A stretch of DNA of 64,000 nucleotides from the IMG/VR virus record IMGVR_UViG_2920693923_000001, positions 1-64,000 of that record, one strand, 5' to 3'. Source of the stretch: a virus. Its lineage: Duplodnaviria > Caudoviricetes. The notes under the pieces were generated by a model. The model was given only the letters and a program-made list of their open reading frames with translations. It was not told where the DNA came from and did not search any database. Below are positions 27,043-32,530 of the stretch, one piece after another; positions within the stretch are counted from its first letter, which is position 1, and each line of letters starts with the position of its first letter. A program made the translations under genes and the position numbers.

Positions 27043-27580
27043 TTTTATTGCCTCCATAAAATGTTTATTTTCTAAAATAATAACATATTTGAAAGCAAAT
27101 GTCTGTGTCATTAATGATACAATTTTCGATTTTTTATTTAACATATAAGAAATCGAGATTTACTTGGTTTCGTTCCATCTTATCTACCTCTAGGAACTGA
27201 GAGGTCAAACTGATTTACACGAGGTATGAGATAAGTTCATATCATTTAACATGTCGTGCCATGAGTACGGAATGCATATTATAGTAGCATCGTTTCATAT
27301 AGCTACTACCAACGGTTGTCACTCTCTGAGGGCTTACCATTTTAAAGGTCTATCCCTGCGAACCAACTGAATTCATGAATTTTTACTGTGCCTATTTAGT
27401 TTCCTTATAATAGGGTAGTACCATGAGTTTTACAGCCTTCCTCGCATATTGCGTCTTCGTTTATCGTATGTATAGCATACTTATCATAGTCCAAACTATC
27501 GTATCCGATAGAAACCCTATGATGTCGGTACGTTCAAAACAATAACAATGATTTGATTAATACGCCACTAACGTATCAAT

Positions 27581-28243
27581 GCCGACATTTTTAAATGAAA
27601 ATGCTGCTGCGATAGCAGGAGCAAGAGTTGGCAATACACCAAATTTGTCAATAAGTTGATCTAATACATGGATTGCTCCTGTACCAAAATCAACTATACC
27701 CTTCAGAAAATCGGAGCTTACTAAATCAGATTCAAGCTCTTGGAGTCTATTCTGGAATTGTGCTACCTTGGCATCAAGAGATTCCATATAAGAGTCAAGT
27801 TCCTTCATTGCTGCTCCATCTGCGTCAAGCGCAGAATTGTACACAGACTCTAACATTTCTGGGTTGAGCAGGATACTAGAGGCGATGTTAGATCTATTCT
27901 TACCTGCAATAGCCTCCACTAAAGCATTTGCTCGGTTTGTTCCAGCTTTTTTATCTTCTTCTTGAATCTCTTTGTAGACCTTGGCGATGTCTAAAAGGAT
28001 ATCGTATGTATTACGGAGATTTCCATTAGCATCCAAAACATCAACACCTTGATATGCATTAGATGCAACAGCAGTATAATCTTTGATTATTTTCTGCGTT
28101 TTTGAACTGGTCTGTACAACAAAATCATCTACATCTTCACCCAAAGAAGCCAATTCATCCTTAGCTTCTTCCGTTCCTGCGAGCCTAAGTGAAATTGTGC
28201 GTACACCACCTGCCGTCTTAGAAGCATCTTGAGTTATAGCATT
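27581..28243 (-). CDS. Tape measure protein, exon 2 (221 codons)
   Basis: 'NAITQDASKTAGGVRTISLRLAG...LRNTYDILLDIA...IAGKNRSN' directly continues the TP901-family TMP core of exon 1. Confidence 0.85.
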
Positions 28244-28295
28244 CGTTATTTTATACTCGATTCGCAACATCGAGTAAATTTTGTTTATCTTATTT

Positions 28296-29291
28296 TTACG
28301 CTACTTTAATATCGTATTTTGATAATTCAGATATTAAATATTCTTCTATATTATTTTGCTCCCAATAAGGAATGCGAATTAATTTTATATTATTATGTTC
28401 ACAATATTTATTTTTAATTTTATCGTGTGATTTTGCTCTTTCGAAACTATATGTTCCATCATCCCCTTTATACCTCGGAATAGGGTAATAATGTCCTTCA
28501 CCATCATACTCAATTGCGATATTATAGTCTTCTAAAAACGCATCAAATGGAAGTTTATTTATATCTCTGCAATCTTCAAAAGTCTTTTGTGGAGTATATT
28601 TTAAATTATATTTATCCAAAATATCTAGCATTATTTTTTCATGTTTGAATATTGTACATTTTGGACAAGAATTTGAACCTTTCAAAATTGTAGTAGGAAT
28701 TTGATAAAATGTAGTATTTGTATGTATTTTACATCTACATAAAACAGGACTATGTGCATTGATATAATCTGCTATTGGTTCAACAGTTGTATCCATAGAA
28801 GCAACCTGTTTTTGTAATTCATCTAATGTTTTTCTGCGTGAATTAGCTACGCGAATTTTTGCACACTCTGGACAATCAGTTGTATTATTATTCTTAGTTA
28901 AATTCATTATTGATGTAGTCCATTGGCATCCACATATTTTACACTCCATAGTCACATTTGATCTAGTATTAACAATATCGGAAGCATTTGATACGATTTT
29001 AGAATTTGGATGTTTTTCTTCTAAATCTAATAAAATATCATCAATTGATTTTCTGTGCTTCTTTGCACTTTTTTCTTTTCCACAAATAGGGCATCCAAAT
29101 CCAGAAAGTAAATTGTATGGCTTTGGAAACCATGTATAGTCATGAATTTTACAATATGATTCGATATTTTCTCTTGCATTTATATAATTACCTTTTATGA
29201 TAATATTAGGAAATATATTAGATACTCTTTTTTGAAGTGTATTTGCACATTCTTGTCTTCTTTTTTCGTTATTTGAATTTTTCTTACTCAT
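28296..29291 (-). CDS. Intron-encoded homing endonuclease (Vsr-like/EDxHD type with Zn-ribbon repeats)
   Basis: Three 'CKI(H/C)...CP.C' repeats plus C-terminal 'LPFDAFL...AIEYDGEGHY...HDKIKN...KLIRIPYW'; probable start MSKK at 29291. Confidence 0.8.
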   Translation of the reverse strand: MSKKNSNNEKRRQECANTLQKRVSNIFPNIIIKGNYINARENIESYCKIHDYTWFPKPYNLLSGFGCPICGKEKSAKKHRKSIDDILLDLEEKHPNSKIVSNASDIVNTRSNVTMECKICGCQWTTSIMNLTKNNNTTDCPECAKIRVANSRRKTLDELQKQVASMDTTVEPIADYINAHSPVLCRCKIHTNTTFYQIPTTILKGSNSCPKCTIFKHEKIMLDILDKYNLKYTPQKTFEDCRDINKLPFDAFLEDYNIAIEYDGEGHYYPIPRYKGDDGTYSFERAKSHDKIKNKYCEHNNIKLIRIPYWEQNNIEEYLISELSKYDIKVA

Positions 29292-29343
29292 AAATTTCTC
29301 TCTTTCATTTAAAAATTTGCAATAAAAAAGAGTAGTCAATTAT

Positions 29344-29520
29344 TTATTCTCTCTTTGACCACTCTGACGTTAATGTATTTAATTTTTCATTTTTAATATA
29401 AACCCAAAACATTTTATGTGTTTCAGGATGTAACCCCACTAATTCATATCTAACTCCATGAGATGTTAAAAAATCTCGAAGTGGAATAGAGTAGCAAGGA
29501 AATAATTTTGATTGTTTCAT
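29344..29520 (-). CDS. Small intron-encoded protein (58 aa, DUF5659-like), not in the ORF track
   Basis: MKQSKLFPCYSIPLRDFLTSHGVRYELVGLHPETHKMFWVYIKNEKLNTLTSEWSKRE* with an AAGGA RBS. Confidence 0.65.
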   Translation of the reverse strand: MKQSKLFPCYSIPLRDFLTSHGVRYELVGLHPETHKMFWVYIKNEKLNTLTSEWSKRE

Positions 29521-29953
29521 TCCTTTTAATCCTCATTTGTTCGATAAACAAAATTCTTACATTTTCATATAAGACATGACTATTTCTTCATCTCCACCGT
29601 TATGTGCTGAGAGTGACCTTTTCGTTTAAAGGTATTTGACCAACGCCATTTGCGATTGCGTCCTACTTCTATTGATTTAGATATTCAGGATTTCCACCTT
29701 TATTTTATAATCATAAAAATATGATATTTCTAAATCCCGACATGGGAATAGTCGATGAGCGTTTACCCTCGTCTCAAGTACCGTATGGTCTACGGAATAC
29801 GTTAGGGTACTTCGTTGCATGAACAGCCAATCCTTACGTTTTTAAACCTTCATATAGTGGTTTCCCCTATATTGTGGTGTAAGGCTCTCAGGCATTACCT
29901 GCAATTAAATTCATTCTATTATATATATTTCTATATATACAGGTAATCACTTT

Positions 29954-32530
29954 ACCTGCGGTTATCAAGGCTACACTTTCGGCAAGATCGTTGCCTTGAG
30001 TTTTTAATACAGCAGCCGAATCTTTTAATGCCGTTGAAAGCTGATCGGTACTGATACTATACTCGTTACCGATTTTATCCAGGACATCAATAATTTCCAT
30101 TTTATCAAGATCTTTGTAAGCCTGTGACATCGCAACTAATGAGTCCGTTGCTTCGTCAATATTATCAAATTCTGATACATTTAATAAAACAGTTGCATCT
30201 TTGGCTGACTCTTTAGCATCATCTAATGATTCACCAAGACGCATCCACGTTGCGGTGGCATCTTGCATTGCAAGAGCAGTAGTACCAACCGAGTCAGCAG
30301 TAGAGAAACTTTCCTTTTGGAAATTTTTTAATGATTGTGCAGATTCATCAGATACTTTACGCATTTCTGTATATGCAGTATCTAGTTCCCTAATAGTAGA
30401 AGCAACTTGTTTAAAACCATTAATAATATCATTAAAACCGAAATACATTCCAATTTGTGCAGCAAAACCATAAAATGCTTTCTCTTTAATGACATCAAAC
30501 ATACTTCTGCCAGCACGACCAGCAAGTTCTTCAGCGTTAACAAGTTTCATTATTTCGCCATGTATTTTTTCCAAACTGACACTAGGATTCCCAGAAATAA
30601 GTTCTTGCTTATATGCTTTAATTTTAGCTTTTGCTTCTGAAGACATTGCTGAATTTTCACGAAGTATTTTATTGATTTTATCAATTTCTTTTTGTCCTGC
30701 TAATCGACTATATCCCTTTTCAGAAGCCGACATATTAGTAACAGTAGCGATAGTATCTTTGATTTTCTTTTCATACTCGTCTAAATTCTGAATATCCTCA
30801 TCAGTAGCGATACCATTTTGATTAGTCTTTATATTGTCGAGAAGAGTTGCGTACTGTTTGACAGCATCACGTACAGCCTGTACATTTTTTAAATATGTAT
30901 CACTTGTCCAACCACCATCATTAAATCTGTCAATAGTGGCTTGATATTTATCAATCTTACCGTTGTAAGAATCTAACCGTTTATCATACTTATTGAGGTT
31001 TGCATTGGCATTCTGTTCTTTAGCCTGTGTATTTTCCTTAACTTTCTGAGTATTCTGCTCTAATACATTATTCTCTTCTTTGATAGCATTGATAACACCA
31101 GAGGTATCAAAAGCGTCTGAGTCGCTTTTAAAATTGTTAATTGTATATCCATATTCTTCAAGAAGTTTGGATAATTGACGAACACGTCCATCAGCACCAG
31201 TTTCATCTATTCCATCTGTAGTCCATGATAAATGAAAATATTTGCCATTATGTAATGAATCAAGAATATTTTGTAACTCATTTGCATCTGTAAATATTTT
31301 TTTAATCTCTTCTTCAAGATTTTCAAGAGATTTCACACTTGAAGATGTATCAATGTCACTGTGAAATGCATCTTTCATTCCAGATGAAATATTCGTTTCA
31401 CTAGCAGGAGAAACAGTAGCAGGCGTGACATTCTTAATCTTCGCTAATTCAGTTTCAAGTTCCTTAACACGATTAGTAAGATCTATGACCTCCTGAATAG
31501 AAGTGTTTACATCAAGTCCATTCTTGAATACATTTGTAAAATTATTTGCAGATGTAGAAATTTCGTCAAGTTTATTAACAATAATTGTCAATTGACTAAT
31601 TACTTCTGAAAGATCAGTTTTGCCAAAAAGATTTTCTATCGAATTATTAGAAGTGCTTTCAGATTTGATTACATTATTCAAAGAACGCTGTGCACCAGAA
31701 ACTGCTGAATAATAAGATTTTTCTATATCAGAATATAAATAATCTTTACCAAACTGTTGTTTGGACATTTCTCTCATCTCAGTAATGAAATTCTTATATG
31801 CAGCAATTTTAGCATTCATGTTATCATATTGATTAATGTCGAAATTATCAAAGTAACCTTGCATATTAGAATCAAGAGTACCTGACATTTTTAGCCTGTT
31901 AAACAGATTCTCATAAGTATGTAACAATTTTGCAGTCCTTGACTGAACTTCGGCAGTTATTTTATCATCTGAGCCAAAATCTAAATTCATATTCAGATTT
32001 AAATTAGATGTTTTCTTAGCTAATTCAGAAATAGAAGAATCTACTCTGTTGATCATAGTTAAAAGAGGTGAGAACTCATCACCATCTCCAACATCAGATA
32101 TAACTTTCCGCATTGAACTAAGATGAGATTCCATTTTCTCGAATAAATTAATAACTGTCTTGAGTTGTTTTTCGTCAACTATTGAATTACCAATACCTTT
32201 TCCATTACCTAAACCAGTTCCAAACGCCTTACCAGAAGCAAGAGATTTAACAACCTCTACCAACTTATCCAAACTTTTAACAGTCTCATCTATTCCTTGA
32301 TCTTTTATCTGCACAACAAATTCTTGTGAAGATAATTGCTTTCTATATTTTTGAATCACCTTTTCGAATTCTGCTTGATTCTTTGAATTAGAAAAGTCAA
32401 AATACATTTCAAGTTTATTATTTTGTAACTCTTTTTGTCCTTCGGATAACCCTTTTAATATCTGAGCAAGCAAATCAGATTTATCCAGCACAATACTGGC
32501 GGTCATCGAAGCAGCTACATTATCTGGCAT
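29954..32530 (-). CDS. Tape measure protein, exon 1 (859 codons)
   Basis: TP901-type TMP core 'IRELDTAYTEMRKVSDES...WMRLG...IIDVLDKIGNEYSISTDQL...GNDLAESVALITAG'; the ORF runs 21 codons into the intron. Confidence 0.88.

Follow-up and report, generated by a model that had tools for sequence, protein, structure and literature searches.

The tape-measure gene on the minus strand of IMGVR_UViG_2920693923_000001 raises the question of how group I introns can be removed when the base pair at the 5' splice site is not U·G. According to a survey, the base in front of a group I intron is in virtually all cases a U paired with G (PMC2504315). In the window, meaning the whole stretch of 64,000 nucleotides under analysis, this gene is interrupted twice, and at both cleavage sites the last exon base faces A, as U-A at intron 1 and as C·A at intron 2. 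Both insertions are probably genuine mobile group I introns, belonging to two different families, that would splice by the ordinary two-step, guanosine-initiated mechanism despite their non-U·G pair. The window makes up the first 64 kb of a virus record of 159.9 kb, which is listed as a provirus with an estimated completeness of 99%. An SPbeta-like assignment of the virus was made because YomU/YomW-type tail genes are present in its relatives; megablast and blastn searches of deposited phages with the region gave no match at the DNA level, and matches at the protein level were distant only.

Three exons and their junctions

Mechanical calling of open reading frames (ORFs) leaves the tape-measure gene in three pieces on the minus strand, of 880 and 237 amino acids and then, 4.7 kb further on, of 2,066 amino acids. 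With both introns assigned, the gene is laid out as follows (here and below, a caret marks a junction):

29954..32530, minus strand: tape-measure exon 1, 859 codons ending ...ALITAG, GGU; taken from the ORF list, with PhageMin_Tail profile positions 4-123
28244..29953, minus strand: intron 1, group I, 1,710 nucleotides, last base G28244
27581..28243, minus strand: tape-measure exon 2, 221 codons, NAITQD...FSFKNVG
22875..27580, minus strand: intron 2, group I, 4,706 nucleotides, with a ribozyme core at about 27580-27150 and then a multi-gene insert
16677..22874, minus strand: tape-measure exon 3, 2,065 codons and the stop, in frame with exon 2 (KNVG^TFKQLPT...)

The PhageMin_Tail domain of Pfam is split by intron 1 (profile positions 123/127) at the end of the first ORF piece, and homologues of the exon 1 protein align as far as this junction. 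All three exons and the ORFs of intron 1 are intact in the ORF list. Unspliced messages run into a stop after 21 codons in intron 1 or 7 codons in intron 2, and therefore the spliced tape measure of about 3,145 amino acids can come only from doubly spliced RNA. In another phage genome, L007, both introns recur at 99.75-100% identity and with differing cargo. A weak match to the Rfam model RF00028 at 15055-15195 was rejected as chance; it sits within an uninterrupted ORF of 2,246 amino acids.

Exon 1 ends ...AUAACCGCAGGU at 29954, and intron 1 begins AAAGUGAUU-ACCUGU. Fifteen close relatives (L008-L022) are uninterrupted at this site and read ...ACTGCTGGT^AAT GCC ATA ACA CAG GAC (ITAG-NAITQD). 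Among the registers that give the intron-less sequence, only GGU^...AACG^AAUGCU leaves an intron that ends in G, and for this reason intron 1 was set to 29953-28244 with exon 2 starting at 28243. The predicted spliced joint is ...ACCGCAGGU^AAUGCUAUA.... Four elements of the intron are referred to below:

29939..29959, minus strand: P1 of intron 1, with exon GCAGGU (29959-29954), AA, loop AGUGA, UU and guide ACCUGU (29944-29939)
29578..29753, minus strand: P7 of intron 1, GACUA (29753-29749)/UAGUC (29582-29578), in canonical form
28296..29520, minus strand: cargo of intron 1, an ORF of 58 amino acids (29520-29344) and one of 347 amino acids (29339-28296)
28255..28275, minus strand: 3'-terminal hairpin of intron 1, ACUCGAU-GUUGCGA-AUCGAGU, 10 nucleotides before the terminal G

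P1 of intron 1 consists of six base pairs and a two-pair AA/UU extension. At its cleavage site the last exon base, U29954, faces A29944 in place of the usual G, as the original prediction had read it (gcaggU/Accugu); the sequence, the intron-less relatives and the RF00028 alignment, in which U29954 falls on the consensus U and A29944 on the consensus G, all agree on this. The next guide base, U29945, pairs with A28243, the first base of exon 2, within a P10 of three base pairs (AAU/AUU). The G-C pair of P7, the putative guanosine-binding site, is kept, and the last base of the intron is G28244. The core lies at the 5' end, the two ORFs come next, and the 3' splice junction is remote, at 1.3 kb; the GUUGCGA loop of the 3'-terminal hairpin is kept across the intron 1 family. 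The larger ORF contains Zn-ribbon/DUF723 repeats and a Vsr-like EYDGxxH tail, and its product is presumed to be a homing endonuclease; a sequence search of solved structures with this endonuclease-like ORF found no match.

At the second site, exon 2 ends ...UUUAAAAAUGUCGGC at 27581 and the guide is found 51 nucleotides downstream:

27522..27588, minus strand: P1 of intron 2, exon AUGUCGGC (27588-27581) with guide ACCGACAU (27529-27522), and an inner hairpin UUGAUACG/CGUAUUAA in the P1 loop
27530..27539, minus strand: P10 guide of intron 2, UUUUGAACGU, pairing with the start of exon 3, ACAUUCAAA (22874-22866)

This P1 has seven Watson-Crick pairs and, at the cleavage site, C27581·A27529 where U·G is expected. 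The distant 3' end was located from two fused, uninterrupted proteins, P0167 and P0168, retrieved with residues 1-300 of the 2,066-amino-acid ORF as the protein query, and from their DNA, L173. The proteins read ...LSFKNVG-MFKQLPTMISELNKLG... where the window reads ...FSFKNVG^TFKQLPTIISDLNKLG..., and the intron-less allele reads ...AAAAATGTCGGT^ATGTTCAAACAATTACC... against ...AAAAATGTCGGC^...^ACATTCAAACAATTACC... in the window. In fact, the L173 DNA (AAAAATGTCGGT ATG TTC AAA CAA TTA CC) is nearly the same as the window's two exon flanks. P10 is long: U27530 pairs with A22874, eight of the first nine positions pair, and weaker complementarity with bulges continues upstream to about 27555. In L004, L009 and L101 the guide is likewise complementary to the start of exon 3, and in L083 the pairing is different but compensated, AACCCAAUAU against AUAUUGGGUU pairing at 10 of 10 positions. 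Based on P0167/P0168, L173 and this long P10, intron 2 was set to 27580-22875 with exon 3 in frame, and the spliced joint is predicted to be ...AAUGUCGGC^ACAUUCAAAC.... The last base of the intron, G22875, is the G of an ATG (22875-22877) read by gene callers as the initiation codon of the 2,066-amino-acid ORF. GUAUG^A is conserved in relatives at the exon 3 junction, and no Shine-Dalgarno sequence lies upstream of this ATG.

The original prediction was right about the C·A pair of intron 2 (augucggC/Accgacau), which agrees with the sequence, with L173 and with covariation of P1 in the family, and about the register, since in each intron the next guide base pairs with the first base of the downstream exon. 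Its interval of 27264-29960 does not bound the introns: intron 1 starts at 29953 and not at 29960, and 27264 lies just past the 3' strand of P7 rather than at the end of intron 2, whose core extends to about 27150 and whose 3' splice site is at 22875.

It is highly improbable that the splice sites were misassigned and that the true junctions lie elsewhere with a canonical U·G pair. A conserved motif at 27184 (G^AUAAGA) is easily misread as the 3' splice site of intron 2, but both junctions are fixed to the nucleotide by intron-less alleles, sister introns of both families have U·G at precisely the position homologous to the window's U-A or C·A, and neither guide has a G within reach of the last exon base. 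The proximal site at G27184, which had been drawn from the conserved motif and would give KNVG-IRWNETK and a stop, was ruled out by P0167/P0168, L173 and the long P10. GAUAAG (27184-27179) pairs instead with a loop, CUUAUC (27235-27230), about 45 nucleotides upstream within the 3' domain of the ribozyme, and the pairing is conserved in the family with compensatory changes (CUUGCC/GGUAAG in L116, AUCUAUC/GAUAGAU in L119). As a mimic of a 3' splice site, GAUAAG could be a decoy or an alternative site. An intron-less allele reading AAAAATGTCGG...AGATGGAA was also sought and gave chance matches only, L166 being inside an unrelated gene of 185 amino acids.

The intron 2 core and its detection

The helices of intron 2 were derived from a 15-sequence alignment (A2). 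They comprise P1 with its inner hairpin, P2 (CUAUCG-GAUA-CGAUAG), P2.1, P3 (GACG/CGUU), J3/4 and P4 (AAUA-UGCGA/UCGCA), P5, P5a and P5b, which is capped by a GNRA loop, P6 (GGG/CCC), the P9 domain, and P7 with what it encloses:

27270..27324, minus strand: P7 of intron 2, GAGUG (27324-27320)/CAUUC (27274-27270), enclosing J7/3 ACAAC, the P3 3' strand CGUU, and P8 GUAGUAGC/GCUACUAU

Under the proposed structure 94.9% of the alignment cells are paired; shuffled alignments reach 77.4%, and sliding the partners lowers the figure to 31-49%. Changes on both sides were found at 33 of the 54 pairs, and the covariation score of 0.534, compared with 0.198, is reached by none of 500 shuffles. Pairing is complete (100%) in P3, P4 and P8, where a single position can show as many as five pair types. 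As a structure predicted by comparison, intron 2 is a complete group I fold.

The P7 that had been described as rewritten, GAGUG/CAUUC with its G-C pair retained, was found as stated, and two-sided changes in relatives back the rewriting: the sister copy L057 has GACUG/CAGUC, and most other members have G(U)AGCG/CGCUC or AGUG/CACU. The window keeps the first G-C pair, the putative guanosine-binding site, together with the neighbouring A-U, and intron 2 ends in G22875. Within the P9 domain, the loop of the first hairpin (27254-27258) pairs with 27218-27222 as CACGA/UCGUG, replaced by UGUAUGA/UCAUACA in L080 and UUGCUGA/UCAGCAA in L082; on this comparison it looks like a covarying pseudoknot.

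The suggestion that standard models may miss a divergent subgroup was borne out. Scanned over 481 nucleotides at a limit of E<=10, the core of intron 2 gave no match to RF00028, and the relatives' copies at this site gave none at E<=1; on intron 1 the model aligns along the entire core (29964-29556) and scores 32.4 bits, short of the gathering threshold of 50. Built solely from 11 U·G-lineage sequences, a covariance model for P6-P7-P8 picks out window 27265-27364 at 84.5 bits (E 5e-21), the sole match in the 160-kb genome.

Between the core and the 3' end of intron 2 lie 4.3 kb with a GmrSD_N-type gene, more ORFs on both strands, promoter-like sites and terminator-like hairpins. The GmrSD_N (DUF262) gene, at window 26047-27144 on the minus strand, follows the ribozyme core, as it likewise does in L004/L005. 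It may serve as defence cargo, or its product may be a free-standing nuclease aiding the spread of this ORF-less intron.

Other elements occupy the same site in relatives. At the KNVG site, L083:7833-8482 holds a variant with the same P1 and P2, a different core and a textbook GACUA/UAGUC P7; only 649 nucleotides separate its 5' splice site from exon 3, and a reverse-strand ORF of 103 amino acids lies inside. L013-L022 (e.g. L013:6585-7220) are without the intron 2 core and have a different element of about 600 nucleotides between ...FIKNFD and the same ...AAGUAUG^ACAUUC junction. It holds a 9-nucleotide complement, AUUCUUAAU, to exon sequence AUUAAGAAU, and judged by these features may be a third intron type at the intron 2 site.

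Cleavage-site pairs among relatives and the mode of splicing

About 100 intron 2 loci were collected by two pattern scans of viral contigs and by contig look-ups. Homologous metagenome proteins continue after KNVG with IDTLVAY, RPKMFGL..., RSKMFDL... or SPKMFGL...; these tails are the translated conserved hairpin at the intron start, and their residue differences are compensatory changes (AGACC/GGUCU, AGGUC/GACCU, AGUCC/GGACU, AGGGA/UCCCU). P1 covaries too, as GUCGG/CCGAC, AUCGG/CCGAU, GUUGG/CCAAC, GCUGG/CCAGC, GGCGG/CCGCC and GAUGG/CCAUC. Among correctly located P1 helices, the cleavage-site pair is C·A in 36 unique sequences and U·G in about 31, with no other pair. In a tree of 15 representatives there are two separate C·A clades, the window with L057 (100/100) and L082 with L118 (97/97), the latter nested with a U·G copy, L109, and all bootstrap trees need two changes for C·A. 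On these trees C·A arose twice. Furthermore, copies of the element in other phages are 97-99% identical to the window's, next to exons with a DNA identity of just 72-76%, from which intron 2 was recognised as mobile.

Members of the intron 1 family were located by a search for the conserved core motif, which turned up many tape-measure sites. In every member the guide stands directly before a conserved P2 hairpin, and P1 was assigned by hand, anchored on this P2, since automatic P1 detection had picked P2 hairpins. Junctions of L128, L130, L133, L085 and both introns of L142 were rebuilt from exon frames, protein homology and the terminal G. The L008 type has U·G, as does L128, which shares the ITAA^ insertion site with the window. 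U-A is carried by the window, L132/L126/L137, L142/L139/L144/L127 (GGUGGU^...ACCAC) and L129, making at least four sequence types over three insertion sites. C-G is the pair in L130/L125, L133, L085 and the second intron of L142, again at least four types. One U-A copy, L147, scores 55 bits on RF00028, above the threshold of 50, with its guide A on the consensus G. In a tree of the core sequence, with P1 excluded, the window's intron 1 groups with L133 and the U-A clade (88/92 support), and eight of the nine U-A rows form one clade (100/99) over two insertion sites; with the window's site, U-A copies occupy three. Such a clade over several sites indicates that the guide A of intron 1 is an inherited, long-lived state of mobile introns rather than a fresh lesion.

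L008-L022, which are uninterrupted at the window's site, have a 74%-identical homologue of intron 1 that lies 39 nucleotides further downstream, after SKTAG. It carries canonical U·G (CAGGU/GCCUG), is preceded by the 9-mer ACCGCAGGU, and has P7 GAUCA/UGAUC in L008/L021, compensated relative to GACUA/UAGUC in the window. The same 9-mer occurs in the window at its own, different site (29954-29962), where L008-L022 read ACUGCUGGU (homologue e.g. L008:2103-2147); by its placement before both introns it looks like a trace of ectopic movement with co-conversion of the 5' flank. In L006:9507-11124 yet another tape-measure site is interrupted, by a canonical group I intron that scores 95.7 bits on RF00028 (10853-11124) and is preceded by a DUF723-type ORF of 386 amino acids like that in the window's intron 1.

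If one or both introns were decaying, a guide mutation would have crippled splicing and the provirus would no longer make a functional tape measure. The record is indeed classed as a provirus, the U-A copy was found at its exact site in two genomes only, and the RF00028 score of intron 1 is below threshold. Decay is nevertheless improbable: the three exons and the intron ORFs are all open, compensatory changes are kept in the helices, and U-A marks a whole clade with several colonised sites. In the intron 2 family C·A is more frequent than any other state, and an intron 97% identical beside exons of 72-76% points to recent spread of a working element.

Another mode would make splicing conditional or helper-dependent. 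With weak pairs, one or both introns would depend on a protein cofactor, on the stage of infection or, given that the A of a C·A wobble must be protonated, on pH, and splicing would gate the full-length tape measure and tail assembly. Consistent with this, non-U·G pairs reportedly lower efficiency in model ribozymes (PMC11417360), the 3,145-amino-acid protein depends on both splicing events, and intron 1 has two ORFs of its own. But a domain scan of the intron ORFs revealed no maturase-like domain, J4/5 in the A2 alignment shows no visible difference between the C·A copies L082/L118 and their nearest U·G relative L109, and the same pair types occur in compact introns that lack ORFs, such as L142. 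Conditional splicing appears unlikely, and the switch for tail assembly that the original prediction had raised finds nothing in its favour in the comparative record. These data fit tolerated variants of the same chemistry better than a cofactor-dependent or conditional reaction.

For ordinary two-step splicing with tolerated pair variants, the following course is proposed. In intron 2 a double change, the synonymous GGU to GGC in the exon and G to A in the guide, would have given C·A, which matches U·G in shape. The Watson-Crick U-A of intron 1 would have been inherited within a clade that moved between several tape-measure sites, and the P7 of intron 2 would be a variant of its family in which the presumed guanosine-binding G-C pair persists. 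The tape measure is needed in few copies per virion, and a slower first step may be affordable. Since the intron 2 family has only two pairs, both wobble-shaped, it was argued that the geometry would still be under selection and hence that the introns splice. The junctions, the pairings, the covarying group I architecture and the distribution of pairs among relatives are shown by these comparisons; that the window's copies splice, and how efficiently, is inferred.

Several points weigh against this. The window's exact type of intron 1, at the ITAG site, was found only in the two genomes mentioned. In other group I ribozymes, Watson-Crick pairs at the cleavage position are reportedly much less active than wobble pairs, and intron 1 with U-A may splice poorly. 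Efficient cis-splicing of intron 2 is not assured because of its 4.7 kb, opposite-strand genes and terminator-like hairpins, and the provirus-classed record could be defective.

A further-reaching idea is that gut-phage tape-measure introns include a clade without need for the wobble, in which U-A and C-G copies are mobile and functional. In addition, pair strength, together with a cargo-laden 4.7-kb intron that may be joined via an unusually long P10, possibly in trans, would set the amount of the full-length 3,145-amino-acid tape measure and provide dosage or timing control of tail assembly. This idea as a whole is conceivable, though rather doubtful.

Comparison with known systems

Intron finders and annotators rely on U·G at the 5' splice site as a nearly invariant feature of group I introns; this locus with its relatives supplies natural, phylogenetically replicated exceptions. 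For ribozyme biochemists they offer natural matched pairs with which the contribution of the wobble can be tested. A widespread family of gut-phage introns is invisible to the standard Rfam model; because the introns go undetected, tape-measure genes of these phages are routinely mis-annotated as two or three truncated proteins, and database entries are split or truncated because the ATG containing the terminal G is taken as a start.

The P1 cleavage-site pair was reportedly the subject of classic mutational work in 1989. The nrdD (sunY) intron of phage T4, of about 1 kb and with canonical U·G, is said to have its core at the 5' end, followed by an ORF, with the 3' splice junction far downstream. 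Both introns described here resemble it in layout, but intron 1 has 1.3 kb and intron 2 has 4.3 kb between core and 3' junction.

In engineered Tetrahymena constructs, a c-A pair was second only to u-G in reactivity and supported precise two-step splicing at a slightly lower yield (PMC11417360). The engineered c-A of the Tetrahymena and Pneumocystis ribozymes is the same swap at the same position as C·A in intron 2. Those are laboratory mutants of somewhat lower efficiency, whereas here the pair is natural, is fixed in the commonest lineage of its family and arose twice. Natural group I ribozymes of bacteria with an unusual 5' splice site are also known in group B IStrons such as BcISt1 (PMC4227781), but these keep U·G and cut one base away, after G; in the window's introns the cut stays at the standard position and it is the pair that has changed.

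A close precedent is the set of TMP-IVS1, -IVS2 and -IVS3 introns in Bacillus cereus-group prophages (Tourasse and Kolsto 2008, PMC2504315), where several group I introns likewise occupy different sites of one tape-measure gene. Homologues at different sites with re-tailored P1, different introns at one site, and many introns without an endonuclease gene are common to both systems. Unlike that survey, the introns here have U-A, C-G or C·A at the cleavage site, the intron 2 family is missed by Rfam, and intron 2 carries 4.3 kb of cargo. Multiple group I introns with re-tailored P1 in prophage tape-measure genes are already described (PMC2504315) and the cleavage-site pair variants are new, the occurrence of U-A and C-G in several mobile intron 1 lineages being a more surprising result than C·A.

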